Positions 38,237 to 60,769 are shown, counted from the stretch's first letter. The stretch: 64,000 nucleotides of DNA from an uncultured Actinomycetes bacterium (GCA_963756895.1 CAVWPI010000001.1:50664-114663), one strand, 5' to 3'. Numbers and translations are program-made. Notes: generated from the letters alone by a model not told the origin.

Positions 38237-41200
38237 ATGTTCCCGTTCTGGGATGTCGCGATTGCCCCTGTGTTGCGGGCGATGGAAGCCAAGCGGATCG
38301 TCGAGATCGGTGCGCTCCGGGGCGAGACGACCGTGCGCATGCTCGACGAGCTCGGTCCCGAGGCCGAGCTCCACGTCATCGACCCGGTGCCGGAATTCGA
38401 CCCGAGTGAGCACGAGCGGGCGTTTCCGGGCCGGTACGTCTTCCACCGCGCCGCCAGCCTCGAGGTGCTCGGGGAGCTCCCGGTGATGGACGCGGCGCTG
38501 ATCGACGGCGACCACAACTGGTACACGGTCCGCAACGAGCTCCAGCTCCTCGCCGACGTGGCGCGCAAGGAGGACGCCCCGCTCCCGGTCATGATCCTGC
38601 ACGACGTCGGCTGGCCGTACGGCCGGCGCGATCTCTACTACGCACCGGAGCGCATTCCCGAAGAGCACCGTCAGCCGTACGCGCAGCAGGGGCTGCGGCC
38701 CGGCAGGCGCAAGCTGATGCGCACCGGCGGCATGAACTGGACGATGTACAACGCCGAGATCGAGGGGGGCGAGCACAACGGCGTGATGACCGCCGTCGAC
38801 GAGTTCGTCGCCGACCTCGGCCGCCCGGTCCGGACCGTCGTCCTGCCCGTCTACTTCGGCCTCGCCATCGTCGTCGAGGAGGAGCGCCTGGCGCGCACCC
38901 CCGCGCTGGCGGCCGCCCTCGACCACCTGGAGAGCGCCGAGGGTCGCCTCGCCCTGATGAAGATGACCGAGGACACGCGCATCCAGGCGATGGTGTTCCA
39001 GCACAACTACATGTACCAGCGCACCCAGGTGCTCGATCGCCTGCAACGCCGGTACCTGCGCGTCGTGAAGGCCGCGCTCCTCGACGAGCACTACCTCGAG
39101 AACGAGATCCGGCTGAAGTACCTCACCGACCGGCTCGCAGTCGATCGGGTGGTGAACGTGAACCACCTGCGTGATCCGGCGCGCGTCGATCGCAATGCAT
39201 ATTCGCAGCTCGAACGGCAGCGAACGGGCGCGGCCGGTCCCGACGACGACGGGGCGGCTTCGTTCCTGCCGTACACGGCAATGGGGCGAGGGCGCCTCGA
39301 ACACCTCGAGGCGTGCCTCGACGCGGTGCGGGTCGAGGGCATCGAGGGCGATCTGGTCGAGTGCGGCACCGGGCGCGGTGGCGGTGCCATCTTCATGCGG
39401 GCCTACCTCGATGCGTACGAGCTCGCCGGGCCGGAGGTGTGGGTCGCGGACCGCTTCCGCGCCACCCCCGCGCCCGCGACCAGCGTCGAGCTGCCCGAAG
39501 TGGGTGTCGCCGGCTTCCGCGCCGATCTCAACCTGGTCCGGGACGGCTTCGCCCGCTTCGACGTCCTCGACGACCGGGTGCGGTTCCTGGCGGGTCCGCC
39601 GGCGGCGACGCTCGCCGACGCGCCGATCGAGCGTCTCGCTCTCCTGCGGATCGGTCGCGCCGCGGAGGCCGACGTCAGCGCGGTGCTCGAAGCGCTCTAC
39701 GACCGACTCACCGACGGTGCCTTCGTCGTGGTGGAGGCGAACGCAGCATCGGACACGCTGGCATTGGTCGACGCGTTCCGTGCCGCACGCGGCATCACCG
39801 CTCCGCTCCAGACCGTCGACGGCGCCAACGTCGTGTGGCGCAGGGACGCCTCGGAGACGGCCGCACGCGCCGGTGCCGACCTGGAGCGCACTGCACTCGC
39901 AGGCGGGCCGCCCCTCGCGCCCCGGCACCGACCGACGCCGTCGATCTCACCGTCGTGGTGGTGTTCTACAACATGAGTCGGGAGGCGCAACGCACGCTCC
40001 GTTCGCTGTCACGGACGTACCAGGAGGGACTCGACGACGTCAGCTACGAGGTCCTCGTGCTCGAGAACGGCTCGCGCGACGACGAGAAGCTCGGCGCCGC
40101 GTTCGTGGAGAGCTTCGGCCCCGAGTTCCGGTACCTTGACCTCGGGGACGAGGCCACGCCGTCACCGGTCGGCGCGCTCAACCGGGGCATCCGCGAGTCG
40201 CGCGGCACCGACCTCGCACTGATGATCGACGGCGCGCACGTGCTGACGCCCGGCGTGCTGCGGTTCGGCCTCGCCGGCCTGCGCACGTTCGAGCCCGCGA
40301 TCGTCGCCACCCAGCAGTGGTACGTCGGTCCCGGCCAACAGGGCGAGGACCTCGAGACCGGGTACGACCGGGCGTACGAGGACCGGCTCTTCGACACCAT
40401 CGAGTGGCCCCACGACGGGTACCGGCTCTTCGAGATCAGCCACTTCATCGGCGACCGCGACTGGTTCGACGGCCTCTGGGAGTCCAACTGCATGTTCGTG
40501 CCGCGCTCGGTCCTCGAGCAGGTCGGCGGGTTCGACGAGAGGTTCTCGATGGCCGGTGGCGGCTACGCCAACCTCGAGCTCTACGAGCGGCTCGGTTCGG
40601 CGCCGGGCGTCACCGTCACGACCATCATCGGCGAGGGTTCGTTCCATCAGCTCCACGGCGGCACGACCACGAACCAGGCCGACCCGGTGGAGCGCCGGGC
40701 CCGGGTGTTCGGCTACAGCCGTCACTACGCGGAGCAGCGCGGCCGACCCTTCGCCGGTCCGGGCAAGCCGCTGCACTACGTGGGCCGGATGCCGTCGCCG
40801 TCCGTGCGGCGCACCAAGTCACGTCGGCGCACCGCGCCCTTGTTCCCGGCGCCGCTGGTGGACGGTGACGGCCCGCCCGAGCAGGCGCTCCCGGTGCCCG
40901 ACGACCTCGAGACCGCGTTCCTCGAGGCGGTGTGGCAGAACATGCCCTGGACCCGCACGACCTGGCTGGGCCGGGCGATCGCCAGTGCGCCCACCGACCT
41001 GCTCGCGTACCAGGAGGTCATTGCCTCGGTCCGGCCCGACTGGATCGTGGAGACCGGGACGGGCGACGGTGCCCGCACCCTCTTCCTGGCCTCGATCTGC
41101 GAGCTCGTCGGACACGGCGAGGTGCTCTCGATCGACGAGACGCTCGCCGAGGACCTCCCTCGCCACCCGCGGATCCGCTACCTCAAGGCCGTCGCCCACA

Positions 41201-41529
41201 GCAAGCCGGGATCTGCACGCATCCGGGCGATGATCGAGGACTCCGGGTCGGTGGTCGTGGTGTTGGGCTCCCGCAAGGACCTCTACAAGACCGCGCAGCA
41301 GTTCGACGGCCTGGCGCCGTTGGTTCCGGTCGGGTCGTACGTCATCGTCACCGACACGATCGTGAACGGGAACCCGGTCTGGCCCGGCTTCGGGCCCGGG
41401 CCCGCGGAGGGGGTCAAGAAGATCCTCACCCGCAACGGCGACTTCGTCGCCGATCCGGCGCTCGAGAAGTACTCGCTGACGTTCAACCCCGGCGGGTTCC
41501 TCAAGCGCGTGCGCGCAAGCGGCACCTGA
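38237..41529 (+). CDS. four-domain enzyme (MT-fold + TylF-like O-methyltransferase + GT2 + CmcI-like), copy 1, one frame break
   Basis: ATG at 38237 (MFPFWDVAIAPVL) in ORF 37982..39976. After ~39900-39945 it continues in ORF 39313..41529 (DLTVVVVFYNMSREAQRTL...). It is colinear over its whole length with the intact paralog 53652..56912. Confidence 0.7.
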
Positions 41530-41631: not shown

Positions 41632-43239
41632 GTGGCGACCAGGGCGGGGGACGTTCACGCGCGTCCGTGGTCAGGGCGTGCAGGATCGTGGCTCGCCGCG
41701 CACGCGGTGGAGATCGTCTTCGCGCTCCTCGTCGTGGCCGCGTTCGCGTACTCGTTGCGCATCAGCCGGTCGTTCTACTTCTACGTCGACGACTGGCGCG
41801 GGTTCGAGCAGGGCACCTCGCTGGGTGGGTTGTTCCGTCCGTACAACGACCAGATGGGCGTCGTCATCATCGGCACCTATCGCGCGCTGGCCGAGCTGTT
41901 CGGCATCGCCTTCACGCCGTTCCGGGTGCTCGGAATCGTGGGCCTCTTCACGGTGCCGGCGGCCTACTTCCTGACGACGCGACGCCAGTTCGGCGCCGTC
42001 CTGGCCGCGCTGCTGGCGCTCCCGCTGCTCTGGTACGGCCGCTACGTCTCGCTCAACCCCAGCCAGCTCGACCACTTCCTCGCCCTGCTCGGCGGCATCG
42101 GATGCGCCGCGGCGCTCAACCGGGGACGGCGGGCCGATTGGGTGCTCGCCGGCTCGCTGGCCTTCGCCCTCGCCTCGGGCGGTGCCGGCGTGGCGGTGGC
42201 CGCCGCCTGCGGCGTGCACAACCTGTGCACGAGAGCGCCGCTGCGACGTTGGCTCGCCGTGCTGGTCCCGGCGCTCGCCTGGTTCGCCTGGTGGTTGATC
42301 GAAGTCGGGCAGGCGTCCCAGGCCAAGGTCCAGGCGATGACGCTCTCCGAGGCGCTGCAGTTCGTCCGCGACGTCGTCTACACGCCCTTCGACAGCGCTG
42401 CCCTCGGCTTCGGTGTGCTGGCCATGTTGCTGGCGGCTGCCTTCGTCGCGTACGGCATCTGGATCCTGTCGAGAGGGCTCGACGCCGGTGCCAACTACGT
42501 GGCCTGGTCGATGGGCGCCATCGTCTGGGCGATCGGCCTCGTGAACAGTCGCGGTCTGGGTGCGAGCGTCACGGTGTTCCGCTACCGCTACGTCACCCTC
42601 GTCCTGATCCTGCTCGCGATCGTGCCGCGTCGGCCGATCGTCTGGCCGGCGCGCTTCCCGATCGATCGCGACCGGCGCCTCATCATCCTGGGGGCGCTGG
42701 TCATCCTCCTGCTCGGATCGGCGCGCGGTGTGGCGGTGCGCGACGACCTGCGCGCGGACAGCGACGTCTGGTCGAAGCTCGGACTGGTCACTCGCGGCGA
42801 GACGATGATGGTCAAGCTCGGGCCCGGGGTCGTCCCCGACGACACCGAGCTGTCCTTCGAGATGGGCCGGCTCCGCGCCGCCGAACTGCGTGCCCTGTTC
42901 GCCGACTACGGGAACCCCTTGTCGGCCAGGCGCGCAACGGCGGATCGGTACGTCGCCGAGGGAGGTGTGAGGGTCGATCCCGACGGCACCCGCACCGGCA
43001 GCTGCCGACCCCTGACCCGGCCCTTCACCTACGAGCCGGCCCGGTTCTCCGTCCAGCGCCTGTGGTCGGCGAACACGCCCTTCACGGTCGACGTGCGCCG
43101 CTTCGGCGACCAGTGGATCCGGGTGGGCAGGGGCAGGCCCGGCACGGCCCTCCGGGTCGTGCTCCCCGGCTTCGGGGTCGAGACCCCCTGGCAAGTTCGC
43201 GCGCAGGGCGCCTGCCGAGTCGGGGCGCAGCCGCGCTGA
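41632..43239 (+). CDS. polytopic membrane protein of unknown family (GT-C-like topology)
   Basis: GTG start. About 11 hydrophobic helices followed by a ~150-aa soluble tail. Conserved N-terminal block FYFYVDDWRGFEQG...FRPYNDQMGVV is shared with paralog 50880..52735 (LGFLADDWRLAQRG...FQPYNDTLNVV). Confidence 0.6.
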   Translation: MATRAGDVHARPWSGRAGSWLAAHAVEIVFALLVVAAFAYSLRISRSFYFYVDDWRGFEQGTSLGGLFRPYNDQMGVVIIGTYRALAELFGIAFTPFRVLGIVGLFTVPAAYFLTTRRQFGAVLAALLALPLLWYGRYVSLNPSQLDHFLALLGGIGCAAALNRGRRADWVLAGSLAFALASGGAGVAVAAACGVHNLCTRAPLRRWLAVLVPALAWFAWWLIEVGQASQAKVQAMTLSEALQFVRDVVYTPFDSAALGFGVLAMLLAAAFVAYGIWILSRGLDAGANYVAWSMGAIVWAIGLVNSRGLGASVTVFRYRYVTLVLILLAIVPRRPIVWPARFPIDRDRRLIILGALVILLLGSARGVAVRDDLRADSDVWSKLGLVTRGETMMVKLGPGVVPDDTELSFEMGRLRAAELRALFADYGNPLSARRATADRYVAEGGVRVDPDGTRTGSCRPLTRPFTYEPARFSVQRLWSANTPFTVDVRRFGDQWIRVGRGRPGTALRVVLPGFGVETPWQVRAQGACRVGAQPR

Positions 43240-43280
43240 TCCTCGCTCCCGGCCCCAGAGACTCACCACCTCGAGATCGC

Positions 43281-43322
43281 TACGCTCACGCCCGGGAGGA
43301 TCCGGGGGTTCGTGCCAGGAGG
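43281..43322 (+). promoter_or_regulatory. putative leader: -10-like TACGCT (43281-43286), hairpin cccgggaggatccggg (43291-43306), RBS AGGAGG (43317-43322)
   Basis: Read from the sequence. The same order and spacing occur upstream of 44471. TACGCT fits the actinobacterial TANNNT -10 pattern. Confidence 0.3.
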
Positions 43323-43328
43323 TCGTCG

Positions 43329-44406
43329 ATGCCGCGCTTCCGATGGCGGAGGAACGGAGACGTGGATTACCCGAGCGAGGCGCTGACCGCCGCCGACGCG
43401 TCTCGTGGCCGACGACCGGGTGCTCGACGCAATCGAGCTGCTCACCGCGGCGAACCGCGAGCAGCGGGATGGTGGAATTGCCCGACGGCTGGTCGAGCTG
43501 CGCTCGGCCGCGTTCCTGCAGATGTCGTGGCCCGAGGACCCGCCCGACTGGCCGTCCACCGTGCCGGACCGGTTCCCGGGCGTGCTCGTCCCGGAGATCC
43601 AGGCATCGGCGCTCACGCTCGACGATCTCCGCAGCGCGATCCGGCACCACGGGACGCTGCTCGTCCGCGGTCTGGTCGACCAGGAACGCGTCGCGGTGCT
43701 GATCGACGACGTCGAGCGCGCGCTCGCCGCGTACGACGCGAGGTCCGACGGCGTGACCCGGCCCGATGTCGACGGCTGGTACGAGCCGTTCGAGCGGGGC
43801 GGGGTCACGGTCAAGCAGAAGCACGCCATGCGCAAGCGGGGATCGGTGCTCACCGTGGAGTCCCCGCCGACGATGTTCGACCTCGTCGAGACGTTCGAAG
43901 CGGTCGGCCTCTCGCAACTGGTGCGCGAGTACTTCGGTGAGCCACCGACGCTGCTGGCCCGCAAGGGCACCCTGCGCCGCATCTCGCCCGAGGGCACCTC
44001 GGGTGGCTGGCACCAGGACGGCGCGTTCATGGGGGTCGACATCCGCTCGCTCAATGTCTGGCTGGCGTTGTCGCACTGTGGCGACGACGCGCCGGGTCTC
44101 GACATCGTCGCCCGGCGCCTGACCGGGCTGGTGCAGACGGGAGACGGCGCGTTCGCCGAGTGGGCCGCCAGCCCCGACGCCGCCGCCGACGCCGCGGCCG
44201 GCGCGCTGGTGCGCCCCATCTTCGAGCCGGGCGACGCGCTGATCTTCGACCATCTCAACCTGCATCGCACCGCGATCGACCCAGGCATGCACCACGACCG
44301 GTATGCGATCGAGACGTGGCTGTTCAGCCCCTCCACCTACGGCGGCATGACCACCGACCTGGGCGAGGGCGCCTCCCCGCGCGACCAGATCCCCATCCTC
44401 CTCTGA
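43329..44406 (+). CDS. PhyH-family Fe(II)/2-oxoglutarate dioxygenase with N-terminal helical extension (family member 1), frame break near the 5' end
   Basis: ATG at 43329 gives MPRFRWRRNG, matching MPRFPWRRNG of the next copy. After ~43395 the protein continues in ORF 43405..44406 (DRVLDAIELLTAANR...). Core motifs: WHQDGAF (HxD), NVWLALSHCGDDAPGLDIV, PGDALIFDHLNLHRTA and AIETWLFSPSTY. Confidence 0.7.
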
Positions 44407-44423
44407 CCGCACGGCTCGCTCGC

Positions 44424-44463
44424 TACGCTTTCGCGCCGGGACGTTCCCGGCCCCGCCAGGAGG
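44424..44463 (+). promoter_or_regulatory. putative leader: -10-like TACGCT (44424-44429), hairpin gccgggacgttcccggc (44435-44451), RBS AGGAGG (44458-44463)
   Basis: Read from the sequence. It parallels 43281..43322, with a different stem sequence at the same position. Confidence 0.3.
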
Positions 44464-44470
44464 TTCTCGG

Positions 44471-45536
44471 ATGCCGCGCTTCCCCTGGCGCAGGAACGGA
44501 CGGACGAGCGCCACCGAGCGGCAGCTCGCGGCCGCGGAACGACTGGTCGCGGAGGGTCGACTGCTGGACGCGATCGACCGGTTGACCCGGGCGAACACCA
44601 CCGCCCGTGACCGCGCCATCGAGCAACGGCTGGTCGAGCTGCGCTCCGACGCCTTCCTGGCGCGGTCGTGGTCCGGAGCGCGCCCGGCGTGGCCGGAAAC
44701 CGTGCCCGATCTCTTCCCTGGCGCCTCGGTACCGGAGTTGGCGCGCGACGACCTCACGGTCGAGCACCTCCGGAGCGCGATCGACCACCACGGTCTGCTG
44801 CTCGTCCGTGGGTTGGTGGACGACGAACGCGTCGCGGTCCTGGTCGACGACATCGACCGCGCCCTCGCCGCCTACGACGCGCACCGCGATGGCGTGGTCC
44901 GGAACGACGTCGACGGCTGGTACGTCCCCTTCGCCCGCGACCACATCAGCGACCGCGCCCGCAAGCGGATGCGCGGCTCGGTCATGACGGTCGAGTCGCC
45001 GCCGACGATGTTCGACCTCCTGCAGACCTTCGAGGAGGTCGGTCTCTCGCGCCTGGTGCGCGAGTACTTCGCCGAGCCGCCCATGCTCCTGGCCCGCAAG
45101 GGAACGCTCCGGCGCGTCTCGAGCGACGGCAACACCGGCGGCTGGCACCAGGACGGCGCGTTCATGGGGACCGACATCCGGTCCCTGAACGTCTGGCTGG
45201 CGTTGACGCACTGCGGCGACGACGCGCCGGGCCTCGACGTCGTCGCCCGCCGCCTCACCGAGCTGGTCCCGACCGGCGGCGCGTTCGCGCTGGGCGACCA
45301 GCCCGGATGCGGCCGAGGACGTCGCCGCGGGCGCGCTGGTGCGACCCGTGTTCGAGGCCGGCGACGCGCTGATCTTCGACCACCTGAACCTGCATCGCAC
45401 CGCCATCGATCCCGGGATGGAGCACGACCGCCACGCGATCGAGACCTGGCTCTTCAGTCCCTCGACGTACGGGGCCATGACCACCGATGTCGAGGAGGGG
45501 TACTCCCCGCGGGATCAGATCCCGGTCGTGTTCTGA
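44471..45536 (+). CDS. PhyH-family Fe(II)/2OG dioxygenase with N-terminal extension (family member 2), frame break near 45290
   Basis: ORF 44471..46534 carries the N-terminus and core up to ...ELVPTGGAFA. The conserved C-terminus (VRPVFEAGDALIFDHLNLHRTAIDPGMEHDRHAIETWLFSPSTY) is in ORF 45339..45536. Confidence 0.7.
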
Positions 45537-46243
45537 GTCCGGCGCTTCCGGACGAGCTCCTGGGCGAACGCGTAGAGGTCGATGTCGAGCGCGTTGTCCT
45601 CGGCGATGCGGGCGCGGAAGGCGTCGCTCACCTCGACCGGGGCAGTGCGGTTCGCATGGGTGAACCCGCCGAGCTGCCAGCCGAAGCGGGCGATGAGCTC
45701 GGTGACGAAGTCCTCGAACGTGGCCTGGTCTCCGACCGCGTCGACCCGACCGAGGTTGTCCTTGGCCTGTTCGAGGCGCTCCGGGGTGAACACCATCGGC
45801 GTGAGGACCCCGTCGGTCATCTCCTGAGGGGTGATGGAGAACATCTTCACCATGTGGTTGTGCACGAGGCCCTCGTAACGCAGTGGGTCCTCGTAGATGT
45901 CCTCGAGCGGCCGGTCCGCTTCGCCCGGTGTGGTCTCGCGGTGGTGGCGGAGGTAGGAGAGCGTGCGCTCCACCGGTTCGCGCAGCACCGTCAGCGTGGT
46001 GAAGTCGGCATCGAGGAGCTCGACCGTGCACAGCGGGAAGTGGCCGGTGATGACGCGGATCCGGTCGCGGTCCGTGCGCCACCGCTCGAGGAGGTGCTCG
46101 ACGGTGATGACCGCGTGGACGTTGCCCTTGTCGGCCTCGAGCGGGTAGATCGCCCCCCGACCGAACTCCTTGCGGAGTCGGAACAGGAGGCTGGTCCCGG
46201 CCGCCTTCTGGACGTGCACGAAGAAGAACCGCTGCGGGCTCAC
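45515..46243 (-). CDS. sulfotransferase (family-2-like, F-F-V-H-x-x-K-x-x-G-T-S type)
   Basis: ORF 45515..46360. GTG at 46243 forms a GTGA overlap with the upstream stop. Motifs FFFVHVQKAAGTS and TVLREPVERTLSYL. Confidence 0.75.
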   Translation of the reverse strand: MSPQRFFFVHVQKAAGTSLLFRLRKEFGRGAIYPLEADKGNVHAVITVEHLLERWRTDRDRIRVITGHFPLCTVELLDADFTTLTVLREPVERTLSYLRHHRETTPGEADRPLEDIYEDPLRYEGLVHNHMVKMFSITPQEMTDGVLTPMVFTPERLEQAKDNLGRVDAVGDQATFEDFVTELIARFGWQLGGFTHANRTAPVEVSDAFRARIAEDNALDIDLYAFAQELVRKRRTQNTTGI

Positions 46244-46974
46244 GAGCTCGTCCCGGCCCGGCGCCGACGCGCGTGGAGCCGTTGCGCGTGTTCGTACAGC
46301 GCCACATCGGCCGCGTTGTCCTCGGCGATCCGCTTCCGGAAGCTCGAGGAGACGTCCCAATCCTCGCGGCTCACGCGGCGATTGCCGGCGCGGTCGAACC
46401 GCCAGCCGAACCGCTCACGGAGCTCCTCCACGAACTCCCCGTACTGCTCCTGGACTCCGAGCACGTCGACCTGTTCCAGGTTCGCCTTCGCCAGCTCGAG
46501 CCGCCGATCGTCGATCTCGATCACGTCCAGGTAGCTCTCGACGTGGTCGGCCTCGGTGATCGAGAAGATCTTCGTCTGGTGGTTCTCGACGAAGCACGCG
46601 AAGTGGAAGTGGTCGTGGTAGATCTCCTCCAGGCTCAGATCGCGGTGCTGCTCGTGGTAGCGCTTGCAGTGCTTGAGGTACGAGATCGTGCGTTCGACCG
46701 GATCACGCAGGAGCGTGAACGTCACCGGGTCGACGTCGACGAGCTGGGACAGGACGTACGGGTAATGGCCCATGTAGCCGCGCAGGGCGGCGCGGCGCTC
46801 CGGAGGAAGGGTGAGCACGTACTCGAGCAACCACGTGCGGTCCATGTCGTCGACCTTGGGCACCGGGAAGACCTCACCGGGCTCGTAGTTCGTGTAGATG
46901 TGCTTGCGGAGCGTCGCACCGCCCGTCTTCATGACGTGCACGAAGAAGAACGGTCGATGGTTGGCTTCGCTCAT
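46240..46974 (-). CDS. sulfotransferase (family-2-like), paralog of 45515..46243
   Basis: ORF 46240..46998; ATG at 46974 or 46998. Motifs FFFVHVMKTGGAT and TLLRDPVERTISYL. Confidence 0.75.
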   Translation of the reverse strand: MSEANHRPFFFVHVMKTGGATLRKHIYTNYEPGEVFPVPKVDDMDRTWLLEYVLTLPPERRAALRGYMGHYPYVLSQLVDVDPVTFTLLRDPVERTISYLKHCKRYHEQHRDLSLEEIYHDHFHFACFVENHQTKIFSITEADHVESYLDVIEIDDRRLELAKANLEQVDVLGVQEQYGEFVEELRERFGWRFDRAGNRRVSREDWDVSSSFRKRIAEDNAADVALYEHAQRLHARRRRAGTSS

Positions 46975-47105
46975 GCACCCCTCGCCTTGGGACGACATCT
47001 CGCGATGGGCCCCGAGAGCTCGTGTTCGACGGAACGCTATCGTGGGCCGCGTTCACGACGAACGTGCTCGCCGGGAACCCCCCGTCGCACCCGGGAGACT
47101 GTTGC

Positions 47106-47537
47106 ATGCCGAACTGGGTGATGGTACCGGTACCGGCGGAGTACGAGTTGAGTGTGCTCGAGCGCGTCCTCGTCCTCGGCATGTCCGCGAGTGGCGGCGT
47201 GACGTGGTCACCCGAGCTGCTGGCCCGGCACCTCGCGGCGCTCGCGCCCGATACCCGTGCCTTCGTGCGCGCCATCGCGCAGGCCGTCGTCGCCAACCAG
47301 CCGGTCGAGGACGTCGAGCTGGCGGAGCGGTTCGCGATCAGCGTGCGTGAGGTGCTCGGCCTCGCGCACGAGGTCAACGACGCGACCGTCGATCCCTTCC
47401 CGGGCGTGATCGTCACGGTGCAGTCCGCGACGGTCGAGGGCGAAGACGGCAGTCGCCGACGCGTCCTGCGGATGAGCCCGCTGGTCGCCGTGGCCATCTG
47501 CGACCTGCCCGTCGAACCAGGGTCGGCCGACAGCTAG
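47106..47537 (+). CDS. hypothetical small protein (143 aa)
   Basis: ATG at 47106 inside ORF 47022..47537, preceded by gggaga. The composition looks coding, and it is the only plus-strand ORF in this stretch that is not antisense to a recognised gene. The segment DVELAERFAISVREVLGLAHEVN is weakly HTH-like. No family recognised. Confidence 0.4.
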   Translation: MPNWVMVPVPAEYELSVLERVLVLGMSASGGVTWSPELLARHLAALAPDTRAFVRAIAQAVVANQPVEDVELAERFAISVREVLGLAHEVNDATVDPFPGVIVTVQSATVEGEDGSRRRVLRMSPLVAVAICDLPVEPGSADS

Positions 47538-48556
47538 GAGGCCGGGTCCGACTCGTCGGAGTCGAGCATCTCGCCCAGTCGCTCGATCCGCCGCCGGAGC
47601 CGAGCGTCGCGCCGGCGGTCGAACGCGAAGAACGCCTGGAGGTCGTACGCGTCCAGCTCGTCCGTCTCGTCGACCTGGTCCGGCACTCCCACCAGCTCGA
47701 ACCGCTGGAACGGGACGATCTCGTAGTCGAGTCCCTTCCAGTAGTACTGGTACCGGTCGGACTTCCACCCTGCGTAGATGTCGTCCCACGTGAGGCGCTC
47801 GAAGTGCGGACGGAGGCAGGTCTCGGTGAGCGCCTCGCCCTCGAGCTGGTAGCGGAAGTCGACCGACACGCGCATGAAGACCTCGCTGGCGTTGTGCAGC
47901 GCCGCGTGGACCGTGTGCGAGTGGAAGACGACGACGTCTCCGACCGAGTAGTCGGTCGTCACCCACCGCAGCTCCTCGAGCATCTGCTCCGGCAGCACCG
48001 CCTTGCGGTTGCCGGGGCCGCGATCCGGCGCGAGGGGCAGCAGACCGTGGCGATGGGAGCCGCGCAGCACGGCGAGCCCACCGAGCTCCTGTGGGCATTC
48101 GCCGACGGGGACCCACGCCGCGGTGAGGTTCGGGGTCCCCTGGTTGTTGGGGTAGTCCTGGTGCGGTGGCGTCGAGATCTCGTAGTGAGCGGGGAACCCG
48201 AGCCGGGCGATCTTCAGGGGGTGTGGGAACGCGCTGTCGCCGAGGAGCTGACGCATGATGTCGAGCAGCGTCTCGTCGTGCGCCAGGCTGTGGAACTCCT
48301 CGAGCCGCTGCACCTCGTCGTAGACGCGGAAGTAGTCCTCCTCGCCCTCCTGGGCCGGCGGAGCGATCGCCACGCCGCGCATGAGGTAGGGCTTCTTCCG
48401 CACCCAGCCCTGATCGGCGAGGGTGTTGAGCATGCGGCGGCGCAGCGCCTCGATCGTGTCGACGTCGAGGACGCCCTTGAAGTAGAGGTACGAGTCCTCG
48501 TCGAACCGCGCCCGGAGCGCGTCGCGATCGCCCAACAGGTCGTTGGACTCGCGCAT
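47534..48556 (-). CDS. PhyH-family Fe(II)/2OG dioxygenase, distinct subtype without the N-terminal extension
   Basis: C-terminal part of ORF 47534..49681. Start at ATG 48556 (MRESNDLL) or GTG 48583. Motifs PPHQDYP (HxD), VVVFHSHTVHAALHN and RVSVDFRY. Confidence 0.75.
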   Translation of the reverse strand: MRESNDLLGDRDALRARFDEDSYLYFKGVLDVDTIEALRRRMLNTLADQGWVRKKPYLMRGVAIAPPAQEGEEDYFRVYDEVQRLEEFHSLAHDETLLDIMRQLLGDSAFPHPLKIARLGFPAHYEISTPPHQDYPNNQGTPNLTAAWVPVGECPQELGGLAVLRGSHRHGLLPLAPDRGPGNRKAVLPEQMLEELRWVTTDYSVGDVVVFHSHTVHAALHNASEVFMRVSVDFRYQLEGEALTETCLRPHFERLTWDDIYAGWKSDRYQYYWKGLDYEIVPFQRFELVGVPDQVDETDELDAYDLQAFFAFDRRRDARLRRRIERLGEMLDSDESDPAS

Positions 48557-48585
48557 GGGGAGGAAGGCCCAGTAGTTGTTCACCG

Positions 48586-49681
48586 TCAGGCGACGAGCGG
48601 CACGTACTGCCCCGGATACGCCGACGGAGCGAAGAACCACGTCTCGATCGCGTAGCGCTGGCGGGTCATCGACGGCTCGGTCGCGGTGCGATGGAGGAAG
48701 AATTCGTCGAAGAGGAGCACGTCGCCGGGCTCGTACTCGGGCCGCACGACCGGCGCCGATGCGGAGACCCGCTCGACGACACCGGGACCGACGGCCCAGT
48801 CGAAGATCGCGCCTTCGGTGCCCGTCTCCAGGATGTGATCGATGCGTCTGGGCACGACGTCGAGGCCCGGGTGCGTCCCGTCCGCACTCCGACAGACAGA
48901 GCCAGACGTTGACGGTGCGGATCCCGCTGCCGAGGAACGATCCGTCCTGATGCCAGTCGGTGCTCGCGCTCGCGCCGACGCGGCGCAACGTGCACTTGTC
49001 GACGGTCATCGCCGGCCGTTCGCCCAGATACCCGGTGACGACCTCACCCAGGCCCGCTTCGTCGAGCGTCTCCAGGAGGTTGAACATCATCCGCGGCGAG
49101 TCGGCGCCCCACACGCCGTCGGCCATGCGAACCCACTTGCGCCCTTGTGCGACCTTGTGGCGCATCTCCGCCGGGTAGGAGTCGCTGGCGCGGAACGGCT
49201 CGAACCAGGGGCTGAGCGTGCCCGCGTCCAACCGGGCGCGATGGTTCTCGGCGTCCTCGAACGCGTGGTCGATGCCGTCGATCAGCTCGCGGACGCGGGG
49301 CTCGCCGACCGCTCCCCGGACGAGCAGTGAACCGTGCGACAGGATGCCGCTGCGGAGCACCGCCGGTGTGAGCTCGTCCGACGACACCATCGGCGGCACG
49401 CTCTCGATGGGGGCGAACTGCTCGGCGACGGGAGGCGACACTGCCGATCCGGAACGGTCGAGGTGATCGAACGCCACGTGCCGCAACCGCACGAGCTCAC
49501 GCTCGACGTCGCCGTCGGGCCGGGCCCGGTTCGCGTCCATGAGCAGGTCGATCGCGTCGAGCGGCCGTCCGTCCGCCTCGATCGCCGCCGCGGCGTCCAA
49601 CGACGCAGCTGTCTCATCTGTCGCCTTCTCATCGGCCGCACCGTCCAGCCCCGCGGGCTCCTGCCGATTCCGGGATCTCAT
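48586..49681 (-). CDS. PhyH-family Fe(II)/2OG dioxygenase with N-terminal extension (family member 3), frame break near 48866
   Basis: N-terminus and core in ORF 47534..49681 (GRPLDAIDLLMDANR...WHQDGSF...NVWLCLSECGRDAPG). The C-terminus is in ORF 48586..48855 (LDVVPRRIDHILETGTEG...PGDVLLFDEFFLHRTA...AIETWFFAPSAY). Confidence 0.7.
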
Positions 49682-49817
49682 CGATCAGGACCTCCCCTCC
49701 GCTGCAGACGGGTTCCCGAGGATACCCGCGGCCCAAACCTCCCGCCGAGGTCGCCCACGGGCGCTTGGTACGCTCGCGCGCCTCGTCAGACACTGGTCGA
49801 CCACCGGAATGTGAGTC

Positions 49818-50855
49818 ATGAGAACACTCGCGTCGCGTCGGATCGCCCGCGCCGCGGCCCGCGCCGACGCGCTCGTGGCCGAGGGCCGGGTGCTCGATGC
49901 CGTCGACCTGCTGACCGAGGCCGACCGCAGCGCGCACGACCCCGAGCTCGAGCGTCGGCTCGTCCCGCTCCGGCACGAGGCCTACTGGGAGCTGCCGCGC
50001 CCGTCGACCGACTCCCCGTGGCCCGTCATCGCGCCCGGCGACGACCTCGTCGCTGCGGGTCTGCCCGTCGTCGCTCCCGAGGATCTCACCCCCGAGGCGA
50101 TCAGCACCGGCATCGCGCGGCACGGGTGCCTGCACGTGCGCCGGCTCGTCCCCGAGGCGCGCGTGGAGCGCCTCGTCGACGGCATCGATCGCGCCATGGC
50201 CGGCTTCGACGCGCACGCGACCGGCGAGAGCGTCGAGCGGACGACGCCGTGGTTCGAGCCGTTCACACCGCGCAAGGAGTACTCGGTGGGCGTCAAGCGC
50301 TCGTGGGTGCGCGACGCCGGTGGGGTGTGGACGGCCGACTCGCCCCGCGTGCTCGCCGACCTCATCGACACCCTCCAGGCGGTCGGGCTCGCGCCGCTCA
50401 TCACCGCCTACCTGGGTGAGCGCCCCGTGCTCTCGGTGAACAAGTGCACGCTCCGGCGCGTCGGGGTCGAGCCCGGGGACGCGAACTGGCACCAGGACGG
50501 CGCGTTCCTCGGCAAGGGCATCCGCAGCCTGAACGTCTGGATGTCGCTCTCGCACTGCGGCGTCGACGCCCCCGGCCTCGATGTCGTGCCGCGCCGCTTC
50601 GAGGAGGTGCTCGAAACCGGTACCGATGGCGCGATCTTCCCCTGGACCGTCGGCCCGGGCCTGATCGACCGCGTGTCCGAAGGAGCCCCGGTGTGCCGGC
50701 CGGTCTTCGAACCGGGCGACGTCCTCCTCTTCGACGACCTGTTCCTCCACCGGACCGCGGCCGACCCGACCATGACGCACCTGCGACACGCGATCGAGAC
50801 GTGGTTCTTCGCGCCGTCGGCGTACCCGGATGGGCAGATCCCGCTCGTCTTCTGA
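49818..50855 (+). CDS. PhyH-family Fe(II)/2OG dioxygenase with N-terminal extension (family member 4, intact)
   Basis: Uninterrupted 345-aa ORF. Motifs GRVLDAVDLLTEADR, WHQDGAF, NVWMSLSHCGVDAPGLDVV, PGDVLLFDDLFLHRTA and AIETWFFAPSAY. Confidence 0.85.
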   Translation: MRTLASRRIARAAARADALVAEGRVLDAVDLLTEADRSAHDPELERRLVPLRHEAYWELPRPSTDSPWPVIAPGDDLVAAGLPVVAPEDLTPEAISTGIARHGCLHVRRLVPEARVERLVDGIDRAMAGFDAHATGESVERTTPWFEPFTPRKEYSVGVKRSWVRDAGGVWTADSPRVLADLIDTLQAVGLAPLITAYLGERPVLSVNKCTLRRVGVEPGDANWHQDGAFLGKGIRSLNVWMSLSHCGVDAPGLDVVPRRFEEVLETGTDGAIFPWTVGPGLIDRVSEGAPVCRPVFEPGDVLLFDDLFLHRTAADPTMTHLRHAIETWFFAPSAYPDGQIPLVF

Positions 50856-52735: not shown

Positions 52736-52770
52736 GAGCGGGCTCGAGGAGGACTTCGCTTTCTCTACGT

Positions 52771-53595
52771 TCACGAGGTGCGGGCGCGCCGGTACGGGCG
52801 TCGACGCACGACCACGAGCTGCACCCACAAGTCGGCCAGTCCGCCGAAGCGTGCGGACGACGGCGCCCACCCGGAAGAATTCCGACGTGCCGTGGACGCG
52901 TCGGTAGTGATGCACGCCGACCTCGGTGAAGCGCGCGTCGACGTCCTGCAGCTTGCGCACCAGCTCGACGCAGATCACGCCCGTCGTGTGTACGAGCTCC
53001 ACCTCGTCGAGCGTCGCCCGACGGATGAGCCGGAAGTCGCAGTCGACGTCACGGATCCGCAGCCCGAAGACGAACTTCACGAAGAGCCGGTACCGCGCCC
53101 GACCACCTCGCGCACGGGACCGTCGGCGCGCCGCAGCTTGTAACCCTGCACGACGTCGACGTTGTTGGACGCGTGCTGCACGAGCACCTCGAGCTCGGCG
53201 GCGTCGTACTGACCGTCGCCGTCGGTGTAGAAGACCCACTGCTTCTTCGCCGCTTCGAAGCCGGACAGGAGGGCGCCGCCGTAGCCGCGGTTGCGGGAAT
53301 GGGTGACCACCCGCAGCATCGGCTCCTCGGCGGCGAGCTCGGCCAGCACCGCGGCGGACCCGTCGGTCGACCCGTCGTTCACCACGATGACCTCGGCGTC
53401 GCACACGCCTGTCTTCTTCAGCGTGGCGACGGCAACGCGCACCATCTCGGCGATGGTGGCTTCGTCGTTGTAACACGGGAAGAAGACCGAGATGGTCTCG
53501 ACCGCAGCGTTCCGGCTGACCTGCCGCCCGACCGCGTGCATGGCGGATACCTCTGCCACCGGACGCCCCCCGACGTCGAAGATGGGCAGGATCAT
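52771..53595 (-). CDS. GT2 polyprenol-phosphate glycosyltransferase-like (DPM1/GtrB type), two frame breaks
   Basis: ATG at 53595 in ORF 53077..54852 (ISVFFPCYNDEATIAEMV...VIVVNDGSTDGS...HSRNRGYGGAL...FYTDGDGQYD). After ~53095 it continues in ORF 52058..53476 (YRLFVKFVFGLRIRDVDCDFRLIRR). After ~52850 a third frame gives FGGLADLWVQLVVVRRRPYRRARTS, with the stop at 52771. Confidence 0.65.
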
Positions 53596-53651
53596 CGCAC
53601 GGCGGGTCGAGCCGTGCTCAGAGGTGCGCCTGCCCGGGTGACCCGAACGCG

Positions 53652-56600
53652 TCACCGCACGCGCTTGAGGAACCCCTGCGGGTTGAAGGTCAGGCCCGCC
53701 CGCTCGAGGTCGAGGTCCGGAACGAAGTCGTCGCGAGCGGCGAGGGACTGCCGGGCTGCTTCGAACGGCCCCGGGCCGAAGCTGGGCCACACCGGGTGAC
53801 CGTTGACGATCGTCTCCTCCATCACGACGTACGACCCCGGCGGGACCAGGGGCGCATAGAGGGCGAATTCCGCCATCATGCGCTGGCGGTTGCCGCGCGA
53901 GCCGAGCACGACGAGCGCGTTCGGGGGCTCGCCGACGTGCTCCCGTACCCGTTGCGCGGTGCCGGCATGGGTCGGGTGACCGGCGAGGTAGGTGATCCGC
54001 GGGTGCCTCGGCAGGTCGTCGCCCGGATCCTCGTCGATCGACAGCACCTGGCCGGCACCGAGCAGCTCGCAGATCGACGCGAGGAACATCGCCCGGCCGC
54101 CGGCGCCGGTCCCGGTCTCCACGATCCACTCGGGACGGAGGCGCGAGATCAGCTCCTGGTAGGCGATGAGGTCGGTCGCGGGCCGGGCCACCGGTCGCCC
54201 GAGCCACGTGGTGTCCTGCCAGGCGTGACTGTGCCAGAACGCGTCGACGAACTCCGCCTTGAGGTCGTCGGGGATCGGCACCGCCTGGGGGGAGAGACCC
54301 TCCGGATCGGGGAGCCCGGCCTTGAACCGGTTCGGGATCGCCCGCCGGCGCGGCTTCGTGCGTGCGGCTCGTGGCGGCATGCTGCCCACGAAGTGCAACA
54401 TGCCGTTCGGGCCGCGGAAGGGGCGGCCCCGGACCTCGGCGTACTGCTCCGCGTAGCTCACGAGGCGGCGACGCCGCTCGTCGGCATCCGCCACGTTGGT
54501 CGTCGTGCCGCCGTGCACCTGGTGGAACGAGCCCTCGCCCATCATCGTGGCCAGCGTGACCCCGGGCGTCGACGCCAGCCGCTCGAAGAGCTCGAGGTTC
54601 GCGTAGCCGCCGCCGGGCACCGAGAAGCCCTCGTCGAAGGCGCCGACCTGCTCGAGCGTCCGTCGCGGCACGAAGACGCAATTGCTCTCCCAGATGCCGT
54701 CGAACCAGTCGCGATCGCCGATGAAGTGGCCGACGTCGAAGAGCCGGTAGCCGTCGACGGGCCACTCGATCTCCGCGAACAGGCGGTCTTCGAACTCGCG
54801 GTCGTAGCCGAGCCGTTCCACCTCGCCCTGCTGGCCCGGACCCACGTACCACTGCTGGGTGGCCACGATGGCCGGTGCGTAGGTGGCGAGTCCGGCCATC
54901 CCGTAGCGGAGGACGCCCGGTGTGAGGACGTGCGCGCCGTCGATCATGAGCGCGAACGCGTCACCAGTGCCGAGGGCGACACCGCGGTTGAGCGCGTGGA
55001 CCGGCGACGGTGTCGCCTCACCTTCGAGGTCGACGTAGCGGAACTCGGGACCGAACCCGCGGACGAAGTCCTCGCCCAGCTTCTGGTCCTGGTCCGATCC
55101 GTTCTCGAGGACGATGACCTCGTAGTCGAGTTCGTCGACGCCACGCTGGTACGCGCGCGACAACGACTGCAGCGTGCGCTCCGCTTCGCGTCGCATGTTG
55201 TAGACGGCGACGACCACCGACAGGTCTTTGTGCGTCGAGCGCGTCGTAGCCGGGAACGCCACGCGCGCGAGGGACACCGGGCGTTTGCGTTCGGCGGGCT
55301 CGGACCGAGTCCCAGGCTCGGCTTTCCGCCAGTAGACCGCCGCCCCGTCGACACGCTCCAGCGGCTCGGCGACGTGTCGCCGGCCCCGGAACTCCTCGAC
55401 CGCACGTGCCACCGTCGGCGTCGAGAACCCGTCCACGACCACGATGCCACCGACCGCGACCTTGTCGTACAGCGCGTCGAGCGCTTGGCCGAGCGCGCCC
55501 TCGAGGTCGTCGCCGATGCGCAGCAACGCGATCCCGTCGATCGGGGCATCGACCAGGGTGTGCGCCGGCGGGCCCTGTAGGAACCGGACCTCGTCGTCGA
55601 GCAGCCCGAAGCGCGCAAACGCTTCGCGCACGTTGTTCAGGTCGGCGAACCCGGCGGCGGTCGCGTCGCCGTCATCCGATGACCGCGCACGGAACGTGTC
55701 GACGACCCAGACCTGGCGGGCGTGCAGCTCGTGCGCGGCGAGAAACCCACGCAGGAAGACGGCCCCTCCGCCGCGTCCGGTCCCGCACTCGACCAGGTCG
55801 CCCGGGACGGCCTCGTCGACGATCGTCTCGAGGCACCGCTGGAGGTGGTCGAGACGGACGCGCCCCATCGTGGCGTACGCGTAGCCGGGCGCCTCGTCCG
55901 GTCCCGCGGTCGTACCCGCACGCTGTGCGTTCTCCAGGCGCCGTCGTGCCTCGTGTTGGCGGCGCGTCGGGTCGCGGAGGATCGCCGGGTCGGCCGGGGT
56001 GCCGCGTTCGAGGCACCGCGCGAGGTAGTCGATCCGCAGCTCGTTCTCCAGGTACTGCTCGTCGAGCAGCGCGCCCTTGAGCAGGTCGAGGTACCGCTCG
56101 GCCGCCCGCGCCAGCTTCTGCTCGTGCTGCGACTCGGTCGAGTGCTGGTACACCATTCCCTCGAGTCGGATCTCCTCGCCGAGCTCCAGGAGCTGCCGAC
56201 CCTTGCCCTCGACCTCGAGTCGGTCGAACAGCTCGACGAGCTCCGGCGAGCGTGCGAGCCGTTCCTCGTCGGCGACGAGCGCAAGGCCGAAGTAGAGCGG
56301 GAGCACCACGCGCCGCAGGGGCCGGTCGTGTTCGGCGACGAAGTCGTCGAGCGCGGTCATGACACCGTTCCGGGCTCCGCCTTCGCGGGTGGCGTTGTAC
56401 ATCGTGTAGTTGAGCCCGCCCCCGGCGAGCACCAGCCCGGGCTTGTCCCGCTTCATGCCGCGTTGCGCGTACTTCTTGCGGAACTCCGCCGGGATCTGTT
56501 CCGGTGCGTAGTAGAGGTCGCGCCGCCCGTACGGCCAGCACACGTCGTGCATGATCAGCAGCGGGAGCGGCGCGCCGGCATCCCGAGCCGTCGCCGCCAG

Positions 56601-56912
56601 CAGCTTCAGCTCGTTGTAGACGGTGTACCAGTTGTGGTCACCGTCGACCAGGGCTGCATCCATCGCGGGAAGATGCGGCAGCACGTTGAGGCTGAGGTCG
56701 CGGTGGAGCGTGTAGCGGCCGGGGAACTTGTCTTGGTGCTCGGTGGGATCGAACGCCGGTGCCGGATCGATCACGTGCACCTCGGCGTCGGGGCCGAGGT
56801 GATCGAGCATCAGCACGGTCGTCTCGCCGCGGAGCGCGCCGATCTCGACGACACGCTTGGCCGCGATGGCGTCGAGGGCCGGAGCGATGACGATCTCCCA
56901 GAAGGGGAACAT
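53652..56912 (-). CDS. four-domain enzyme, intact 1086 aa: class I MT-fold (Methyltransf_24-like) + TylF-like O-methyltransferase + GT2 + CmcI-like MT-fold
   Basis: Single uninterrupted ORF with ATG at 56912. Domain 1: aa 1-215 (nt 56912-56268), VVEIGALRGETT...VDGDHNWYTV. TylF domain: aa ~270-530 (nt 56105-55323), MGRVRLDHLQRCLETIVDEAVPGDLVECGTGRGGGAVFL...VWVVDTF. GT2 domain: aa ~562-800 (nt 55229-54513), LSVVVAVYNMRREAERTL...VIVLENGS. CmcI domain: aa ~885-1086 (nt 54260-53655), TTWLGRPVARPATDLIAYQELISRLRPEWIVETGTGAGG. Confidence 0.85.
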   Translation of the reverse strand: MFPFWEIVIAPALDAIAAKRVVEIGALRGETTVLMLDHLGPDAEVHVIDPAPAFDPTEHQDKFPGRYTLHRDLSLNVLPHLPAMDAALVDGDHNWYTVYNELKLLAATARDAGAPLPLLIMHDVCWPYGRRDLYYAPEQIPAEFRKKYAQRGMKRDKPGLVLAGGGLNYTMYNATREGGARNGVMTALDDFVAEHDRPLRRVVLPLYFGLALVADEERLARSPELVELFDRLEVEGKGRQLLELGEEIRLEGMVYQHSTESQHEQKLARAAERYLDLLKGALLDEQYLENELRIDYLARCLERGTPADPAILRDPTRRQHEARRRLENAQRAGTTAGPDEAPGYAYATMGRVRLDHLQRCLETIVDEAVPGDLVECGTGRGGGAVFLRGFLAAHELHARQVWVVDTFRARSSDDGDATAAGFADLNNVREAFARFGLLDDEVRFLQGPPAHTLVDAPIDGIALLRIGDDLEGALGQALDALYDKVAVGGIVVVDGFSTPTVARAVEEFRGRRHVAEPLERVDGAAVYWRKAEPGTRSEPAERKRPVSLARVAFPATTRSTHKDLSVVVAVYNMRREAERTLQSLSRAYQRGVDELDYEVIVLENGSDQDQKLGEDFVRGFGPEFRYVDLEGEATPSPVHALNRGVALGTGDAFALMIDGAHVLTPGVLRYGMAGLATYAPAIVATQQWYVGPGQQGEVERLGYDREFEDRLFAEIEWPVDGYRLFDVGHFIGDRDWFDGIWESNCVFVPRRTLEQVGAFDEGFSVPGGGYANLELFERLASTPGVTLATMMGEGSFHQVHGGTTTNVADADERRRRLVSYAEQYAEVRGRPFRGPNGMLHFVGSMPPRAARTKPRRRAIPNRFKAGLPDPEGLSPQAVPIPDDLKAEFVDAFWHSHAWQDTTWLGRPVARPATDLIAYQELISRLRPEWIVETGTGAGGRAMFLASICELLGAGQVLSIDEDPGDDLPRHPRITYLAGHPTHAGTAQRVREHVGEPPNALVVLGSRGNRQRMMAEFALYAPLVPPGSYVVMEETIVNGHPVWPSFGPGPFEAARQSLAARDDFVPDLDLERAGLTFNPQGFLKRVR

Positions 56913-57061
56913 GACGGTGCGCAGATCTCCTTTCGACGGCGCTCGCAGCCCGACCGGTCACCGGTGCAACCGCGCTCACGATCGCACGGCACCAGGTTCC
57001 GGGCAACCTGACCGCTGCCGAGACGGTCCGCTTGGTGTTCGATACGATGCCAGCTTCTCCG

Positions 57062-60705: not shown

Positions 60706-60769
60706 CGATAGAGTCCCGGACCGTGACGGGGGCGAGCACGGCTCGCGGTAGGGACGCACAACGATCGCG

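Follow-up and report, generated by a model that had tools for sequence, protein, structure and literature searches.

Among enzymes that assemble surface glycans, WsaE of Geobacillus stearothermophilus NRS 2004/3a is an experimentally studied trifunctional methyl-rhamnosyltransferase that combines an N-terminal O-methyltransferase domain with two rhamnosyltransferase domains (PMC2943079). By analogy, WsaE appears to be the closest functional precedent for the gene that we describe here, a four-domain gene (hereafter copy 1) on a 64,000-nucleotide stretch of DNA from an uncultured Actinomycetes bacterium (GCA_963756895.1, CAVWPI010000001.1:50664-114663); we refer to this whole stretch as the window and count all coordinates from its first letter. 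WsaE is one soluble polypeptide in which an N-terminal S-adenosylmethionine (SAM)-dependent O-methyltransferase is joined to glycosyltransferase (GT) activity on a lipid-linked surface glycan (PMC2943079), and copy 1 is likened to it on the grounds of domain architecture. The two differ in composition and setting: WsaE harbors one methyltransferase (MT) domain and two GT domains, whereas copy 1 harbors a single GT domain together with three MT-fold domains, of which two are degenerate; and WsaE functions as polymerase and terminator in an ABC-transporter pathway, whereas copy 1 is found in a locus with Wzy and Wzz genes.

All component families of copy 1 are already known, namely the TylF/MycF/NovP/SpnH enzymes, CmcI and the O-methyltransferases of phenolic glycolipid (PGL) synthesis, GT2, and Methyltransf_24. 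Of these, the mycobacterial PGL enzymes Rv2954c, Rv2955c, and Rv2956 act as O-methyltransferases on the sugar portion of a glycolipid of the cell envelope (PMC3594219). The novelty lies in the arrangement of the four domains, in a loss of catalytic residues that systematically affects two of the three MT folds, and in a conserved pairing with sulfotransferase and dioxygenase genes in a class that has received little study. We propose, as an interpretation that we consider evenly balanced, that copy 1 encodes, in an Acidimicrobiia-type soil actinobacterium, a soluble cytoplasmic enzyme for a methylated, sulfated surface glycan, which adds and O-methylates a single sugar and carries two degenerate MT-fold modules.

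Architecture and family of copy 1

Copy 1 is an uninterrupted reading frame (coordinates of this and all other features are collected in Table 1), and its G+C content at the three codon positions (0.75/0.46/0.90) follows the pattern typical of real genes in the window, which has 70.6% G+C overall. Spurious open reading frames (ORFs) of about 1000 residues occur on other frames of the window, e.g., one of 1060 residues at 41671..44853 on the minus strand, so that the length of copy 1 alone proves nothing; it is instead the more than 1000 homologues with the same length and domain set that make copy 1 neither a chance nor a chimeric ORF. Pfam finds all four domains in one order, with Methyltransf_24 (PF13578, 78.2 bits versus a cut-off of 26.3) followed by TylF (PF05711, 199.5 bits versus 23, covering profile positions 2-264 of 264), Glycos_transf_2 (32.6 bits versus 23.3), and RMNT_CmcI (PF04989, 148.1 bits versus 23.2). 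This is the order given in the original prediction, made from the DNA before any database search, which had also called an intact ORF of 1086 residues; both calls were borne out, the former by fold comparison as well and the latter by the ATG start, the codon-position signal, and the homologues. Every motif quoted there is found in the translation, and the profiles uphold its assignments to TylF and CmcI.

A full-length AlphaFold2 model of copy 1, built on 108 homologues, is confident (mean predicted local distance difference test score of 86.8 and predicted TM-score of 0.77). Foldseek searches with this model return MycF, NovP, and SpnH, the GT-A glycosyltransferases K4CP, PmHS2, RmlT, and GlfT2, and CmcI, and in the model the first two domains are separated by long helices (residues 238-302). 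A pairwise profile comparison with hhalign aligns the TylF-like and CmcI-like domains with each other at 87% probability, and reveals no significant relationship of the N-terminal domain to either of them beyond SAM motif I. The counts of motifs and alignment columns given below are likewise taken over 108 homologues.

The protein search returned 1039 matches to copy 1 at E ≤ 1e-10, and a scan of one genome per species located at least 595 encoding stretches. The 120 best homologues are 1065-1138 residues long, and precomputed annotation assigns the full set of four Pfam domains to most of them; a GT2 match is absent from the record of about a dozen, and one, P0001, lacks TylF. Names are automatic only, being variously “cephalosporin hydroxylase,” “CmcI family methyltransferase,” and “class I SAM-dependent methyltransferase.” To place copy 1 in its genomic context, we considered 77 distinct related loci, derived from the best 80 matches of the at least 595 stretches, and all locus counts below refer to this set. 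All 77 loci are from metagenome-assembled genomes (MAGs), nearly all labelled Acidimicrobiia, Acidimicrobiales, Microthrixaceae, Iamiaceae, Aquihabitans, or Actinomycetota, with a few bins labelled Solirubrobacterales or Acidobacteria. Literature searches on the combination of TylF, CmcI, and glycosyltransferase domains, and on cell-wall polysaccharides or envelope glycans of Acidimicrobiia, retrieved no paper. The suggestion that the four-domain order is undescribed thus stands as far as papers and names go, but it is no rarity, as this is a common family in Acidimicrobiia.

The exact copy 1 protein is not on record in public assemblies, and a search of sequencing runs from public soil metagenomes found only related strains, with at most 14% of the sampled words. 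The closest relative among the matches listed is P0001, encoded on a 27,896-bp ENA contig, which is 90-93% identical to copy 1 outside residues ~344-502; inside these limits the two do not align, although their total length is the same, and two compensating frameshifts in the contig are the most likely cause. In a neighbor-joining tree, copy 1 and a second copy in the window (copy 2, see below) fall into different deep clades, as do the same-locus pairs in L012, L045, L047, and L070, and we take this to indicate that the paralogues are old and probably specialized.

An assembly chimera, or separate genes fused by an indel error, would give rise to a four-domain ORF as well, and indels do break other genes of the window (copy 2, the GT2-membrane gene near position 53093, and probably an SBBP-repeat gene). 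Such an origin has practically no probability for copy 1, given more than 100 listed homologues of 1065-1138 residues with the same four domains from JGI, ENA, NCBI, and Logan assemblies, at least 595 stretches with the family, conserved linker lengths, and a confident full-length model; the homologues, the number of stretches, and the model together refute it.

Methyltransferase-fold and GT2 domains

Glycine-rich SAM motif I is kept in all three MT-fold domains of copy 1, and these differ in what else remains of the active site. In the N-terminal Methyltransf_24-type domain, EIGALRG, D48, DGDH (residues 89-92), and HD (residues 121-122) are invariant in all 108 homologues. A profile of this domain aligns weakly (E of 0.04-0.3) with solved cation-dependent O-methyltransferases, and the alignment places DGD on their DAD metal motif. 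Judged by motif conservation, this is the sole MT-fold domain of copy 1 with a complete, invariant site, and it is predicted to be a cation-dependent, SAM-dependent O-methyltransferase.

The second domain has its fold, sequence, SAM motif I, and β2 Asp in common with TylF, MycF, NovP, and SpnH. It is 30-40% identical to these enzymes and matches MycF, NovP, and SpnH in Foldseek with E-values of 1e-18 to 1e-16 and target TM-scores of 0.8-0.87; motif I reads ECGTGRGG at residues 374-381 (G381 in 108 of 108 sequences, R379 in 105), and the acidic residue of β2, D404, is kept throughout the family. The known enzymes are stand-alone proteins of ~250-280 residues that act on antibiotic deoxysugars and carry an LDGD...DDY signature, whereas in copy 1 the domain is fused and this signature is replaced: the LRLDGDLYES...IIDDY of SpnH and NovP aligns with LRIGDDLEGA...VVDGF, i.e., LDGD is changed to RIGDD and DDY to DGF. 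We take the aspartates of LDGD...DDY in the NovP and MycF structures to be the Mg2+ ligands and the general base. Among the 108 homologues, 93 have Gly at position 466; at position 468, 52 have Gly and 20 have Asp; and none combines Asp at both. On alignment, then, the TylF-like domain is without the canonical metal and base aspartates and retains SAM motif I.

The C-terminal 190 residues share the PF04989 profile and the CmcI fold with CmcI and with Rv2954c, Rv2955c, and Rv2956 (Foldseek match of the copy 1 model to CmcI, E of 1.6e-8) and are closer to the rhamnosyl O-methyltransferase model than to CmcI itself. The NCBIfam model RhmsylMtase (NF045824) matches with an E-value of 1.5e-35 and 122.7 bits, versus an equivalog cut-off of 400; by these profiles the domain is a member of the superfamily and no rhamnosyl O-methyltransferase equivalog. 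Motif I is kept as VETGTGAGG. The metal-binding residues of CmcI are presumably Asp160 in β4 and Glu186/Asp187 in β5. The β5 acidic pair is retained in copy 1 as EE (E1031 in 95 of 108, D/E1032 in 77 of 108), Asp160 aligns with Gly1003 (Gly in 106 of 108), and the acidic residue of β2 is Asp in only 78 of 108. In β4, LDSDH or LDSMH is found in stand-alone members of the CmcI family (from Tistrella, Bacillus, and Sinorhizobium plasmids), whereas both copies in the window read LGSR(G/K); in copy 1 this is VLGSRG, with Asp and His replaced. The domain thus differs from the CmcI family in having Gly for Asp160, LGS-x-G for LDSDH, and a position behind a GT2 domain. On the Tistrella mobilis plasmid pTM1 (L079, 3968-5463), a stand-alone CmcI-family gene is directly followed by a TylF/MycF-family gene, and these two MT types therefore also occur as adjacent separate genes.

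The original prediction had read the fusion as an add-and-methylate machine with up to three methyl-transfer domains, each to be checked for its SAM-binding residues. A GT fused to an MT in a glycan locus fits this idea, and motif I is indeed present in all three domains; three methylating domains are not supported, since catalytic residues are lost in the TylF-like and CmcI-like domains and only the N-terminal site is complete. If all three MTs were active nonetheless, one polypeptide would add a sugar and methylate up to three positions, yielding, for example, a tri-O-methyl 6-deoxyhexose as in mycobacterial PGLs and glycopeptidolipids. All three domains score well above threshold against MT families and have glycine-rich SAM motifs, solved structures share the folds of the TylF-like and CmcI-like domains, relatives of both methylate sugar hydroxyls (MycF, NovP, and SpnH; Rv2954c-Rv2956, PMC3594219), and the conservation of the degenerate domains suggests some function. 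We nevertheless regard three active MTs as unlikely, because the two LDGD aspartates of the TylF-like domain are found together in none of the homologues, the β4 Asp/His of the CmcI-like domain is missing and replaced by Gly almost throughout, and the β2 acid of the latter domain, the expected SAM-ribose binder, is lost in about a quarter of them.

Few parts of the protein are as highly conserved as the GT2 domain and its motifs. The domain has a GT-A fold, a nucleotide-binding half, and an (E/D)NGS motif in common with GT2 enzymes of this fold such as K4CP chondroitin polymerase, TarP/TarS, RmlT, WrtF, and GtrB, from which it is distinguished by DGAH and by long, conserved, family-specific insertions (QQWYVGPGQQ and GEGSFHQVHGGTTTN). 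The complete set of family-specific invariant motifs comprises ENGS, DGAH, QQWYVGPGQQ, GDRDW, WESNC, GGGYANLE, and GEGSFHQVHGGTTTN, of which the first varies as (E/D)NGS and the second stands in place of DXD in all 108 homologues. A separate model of this region matches K4CP (E of 6.6e-9), WrtF, TarP/TarS, RmlT, and GtrB in Foldseek with modest TM-scores of 0.4-0.55. A profile search of the PDB matches only the first ~100 residues, the nucleotide-binding N-terminal half; with the alignment ending there, the catalytic base cannot be placed by sequence. The invariant polar residues of the domain are D657, H660, D734, E741, N743, E776, H796, and H799, of which E741, D734, H796, and H799 could substitute for the missing acidic motifs. 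Given this strong conservation and the many invariant polar residues, we predict that the domain is active but noncanonical. Furthermore, stand-alone homologues of ~280 residues, 33-42% identical to residues 563-849, adjoin the four-domain gene in ~20 related loci, and in L008, L010, L015, L016, L025, L030, L063, and others they lie just downstream of the match.

These features bear on a further alternative, in which the GT2 domain would also be inactive and the protein a largely noncatalytic scaffold, with at most one MT activity, that organizes sulfotransferases, dioxygenases, and other enzymes of the cluster. Degeneracy in two of three MT domains, the noncanonical GT2 motifs, and the low Pfam score of the GT2 domain (32.6 bits) are as expected for such a scaffold. 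The GT2 domain is strongly conserved, however, with a pattern of invariant polar residues typical of an active site, and the stand-alone homologues next door suggest that this domain has an activity of its own; we consider a scaffold of this kind quite unlikely.

The surrounding glycan locus and copy 2

Gene content marks the 64-kb window in its entirety as a region of glycan synthesis. It encodes GT4, GT2, and WbsX-type transferases, two Wzy-like (Wzy_C) and two Wzz/kinase proteins, nucleotidyltransferases, a 4,6-dehydratase, a DegT aminotransferase, a sugar C-methyltransferase (Methyltransf_13/14), several small methyltransferases, PIG-L and polysaccharide deacetylases, sulfotransferases, two sulfatases, and ArnC/GtrB-like GT2 genes beside large membrane proteins. 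Positions 1-36000 form a continuous glycan-synthesis stretch that includes a Sulfotransfer_1 gene. No ABC-transporter family was matched among the scanned ORFs of the window.

Table 1. Coordinates of copy 1, its domains, copy 2, and neighboring features in the window
Feature	Coordinates	Strand	Details
Copy 1, four-domain gene	53652..56912	-	Intact ORF, ATG start, 1086 residues
N-terminal Methyltransf_24-type domain with conserved insertion (residues 124-236)	56205..56912	-	Residues 1-236; Pfam Methyltransf_24 at residues 22-123, E 1e-21
TylF/MycF-like domain	55323..56099	-	Residues 272-530; Pfam TylF at residues 272-530, E 7.6e-59
GT-A fold GT2 domain	54363..55232	-	Residues 561-850; Pfam Glycos_transf_2 at residues 565-696, E 9.6e-8, weak but above cut-off
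CmcI/rhamnosyl-O-methyltransferase-like domain	53658..54224	-	Residues 897-1085; Pfam RMNT_CmcI at residues 897-1085, E 3.8e-43
Copy 2, colinear paralogue	38237..41529	+	3293 nt, not a multiple of 3; interrupted
Gene directly downstream of copy 1	52058-53640	-	GtrB/DPM1-like GT2 domain, then multi-pass membrane domain
HS6ST-like sulfotransferase, tandem gene	45518..46270	-	Motifs and family profile
HS6ST-like sulfotransferase, tandem gene	46243..47052	-	Motifs and family profile
PhyH-type Fe(II)/2-oxoglutarate dioxygenase	43387..44406	+	Pfam PhyH
PhyH-type Fe(II)/2-oxoglutarate dioxygenase	~44621..45310	+	Pfam PhyH
PhyH-type Fe(II)/2-oxoglutarate dioxygenase	within 47534..49684	-	Pfam PhyH
PhyH-type Fe(II)/2-oxoglutarate dioxygenase	49815..50855	+	Pfam PhyH
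Sulfatase flanking the four-domain pair	36787-38064	-	
Sulfatase flanking the four-domain pair	59287-60705	+	Tat signal

Copies 1 and 2 are convergent and enclose four PhyH genes and two HS6ST-like genes, and convergent four-domain pairs around such genes are found in many related loci (e.g., L006, L012, L045, L047, L064, L070, and L075). Neither HS6ST-like protein has a secure Pfam match, one having none and the other matching Sulfotransfer_2 weakly. The pair harbors a 5'-phosphosulfate-binding motif (FFFVHxQKTAGT) and a 3'-phosphate-binding motif (LRDPVERT), and the family profile matches heparan sulfate 6-O-sulfotransferase (5t03) with an E-value of 3.4e-14. Sulfotransferase homologues are present in 42 of the 77 related loci, often directly downstream of the four-domain gene, and PhyH homologues in ~40. 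In an NCBIfam scan, neither the sulfotransferase-like proteins nor the large membrane proteins had a match; of the four PhyH-like proteins only one did, weakly and below threshold, to a 1-deoxypentalenic acid hydroxylase model.

With two sulfatases flanking the four-domain pair, sulfation and desulfation are encoded side by side; sulfatase genes and radical-SAM/SPASM (anSME-like) genes are found in related loci as well. Three stretches encode large hydrophobic proteins that match nothing in Pfam or NCBIfam, at 41632-43239 (plus strand), 60752-62674 (plus strand), and in the membrane part of 52058-53200 (minus strand), and the first and last of these are homologous to each other. Two of the three are beside or fused to polyprenyl-phosphate GT2 genes, a proximity that suggests that the large hydrophobic proteins may be GT-C-like extracytoplasmic transferases.

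The content of the locus also bears on whether copy 1 could be a cap enzyme that terminates chains in an ABC-transporter-dependent pathway, in the manner of WbdD or of the MT domain of WsaE; a final sugar would then be added and methylated to stop elongation and flag the chain for export. WsaE, with its N-terminal MT and GT domains, does cap the S-layer glycan with 2-O-methyl-rhamnose (PMC2943079), and the long helices at residues 238-302 of copy 1 could serve as a spacer. We find this role rather improbable, as the window, with no Wzm/Wzt ABC-transporter gene among its scanned ORFs, has instead the two Wzy-like and two Wzz/kinase genes typical of a Wzx/Wzy route, and the presence of several deep paralogues in a locus is more readily explained by tailoring at specific positions than by one terminator.

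Copy 2 is the second colinear copy that the original prediction had placed at 38237..41529; it is a colinear paralogue, but its ORF is not intact. The N-terminal half is 55% identical to copy 1 and read in frame 2 to a stop at 39976, and the C-terminal half is 63% identical and read in frame 1 from ~39943. The break is a 1-base frameshift in the linker between the TylF and GT2 domains, at a run of C (39920-39923) in a C-rich stretch. A 359-nt contig from soil metagenome X1 covers 39737..40094 with three mismatches and has one extra C behind 39919 (C4 to C5), and in a contig that is more distant an additional G follows 39923; adding a C to copy 2 restores a single ORF of 1097 residues. We considered a programmed frameshift, or two genes, and ruled out both, as copy 2 has no usable start codon for a separate GT2-CmcI gene and a near-identical contig has the extra base.

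The GT2-membrane gene directly downstream of copy 1 is likewise split over two frames near 53077-53200, and two related contigs have an extra A behind 53093, which resolves the split. Split hits also occur in related loci from MAGs labelled MFD, which are long-read assemblies to judge by their isolate names. The frameshifts in copy 2 and in the GT2-membrane gene are thus most likely single-base assembly indels, with a strain-specific pseudogene as a possible alternative. A DUF7948/SBBP β-propeller-repeat protein at 57032-59309 (plus strand) runs into a second frame after ~58300, in what looks like a further frameshift of this type.

Proposed function and significance

In the mechanism that we favor for copy 1, the GT-A (GT2) domain would use a nucleotide sugar as donor to add one sugar to a glycan intermediate carried on a lipid, and the N-terminal Methyltransf_24 domain would O-methylate the added sugar or a neighboring one. 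The TylF-like and CmcI-like domains would probably be noncatalytic modules that bind SAM, S-adenosylhomocysteine (SAH), or a sugar, or that hold the assembly together, rather than two additional O-methyltransferases working by the canonical metal-dependent route. Sulfation of the glycan would fall to the neighboring HS6ST-like enzymes, and oxidation of the glycan or of one of its substituents to the PhyH enzymes. Two features of the protein weigh against this proposal. The degenerate MT domains are well conserved and keep their SAM motifs, which leaves room for metal-independent catalysis. In addition, the GT2 domain has DGAH rather than the canonical DXD, and its G(Y/F)AN occupies a place that is Glu-Asp in many GT2 enzymes; with DGAH and Ala-Asn at these positions, glycosyl transfer is not assured.

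Taken with its neighbors, the set of four-domain paralogues, HS6ST-like enzymes, and PhyH enzymes probably decorates a methylated, sulfated cell-surface polysaccharide. A bolder extension, which we put forward as possible but on balance doubtful, is that convergent GT/MT paralogues bracketing HS6ST-like and PhyH genes constitute an Acidimicrobiia-specific cassette that builds a methylated, sulfated glycan not described in Actinobacteria, and that the degenerate MT folds have been repurposed as readers of modified sugars or as SAM/SAH sensors through which methylation and glycosyl transfer are coupled. If so, pseudo-methyltransferase modules would reside inside a glycan assembly enzyme.

Copy 1 is a clear natural example of MT folds in which the SAM motif persists, catalytic residues have been lost, and the partner to which they are fused looks active, and it is as such a useful case for the automatic annotation of “methyltransferases”; the database names “cephalosporin hydroxylase” and “CmcI family methyltransferase” miss three of its four domains. 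Acidimicrobiia are abundant in soil, water, and activated sludge, and few have been cultured. The four-domain family is found mostly in this class, often with several genes per genome, and its recurring association with carbohydrate sulfotransferases, sulfatases, and 2-oxoglutarate dioxygenases points to an undescribed methylated, sulfated surface polymer in these organisms.

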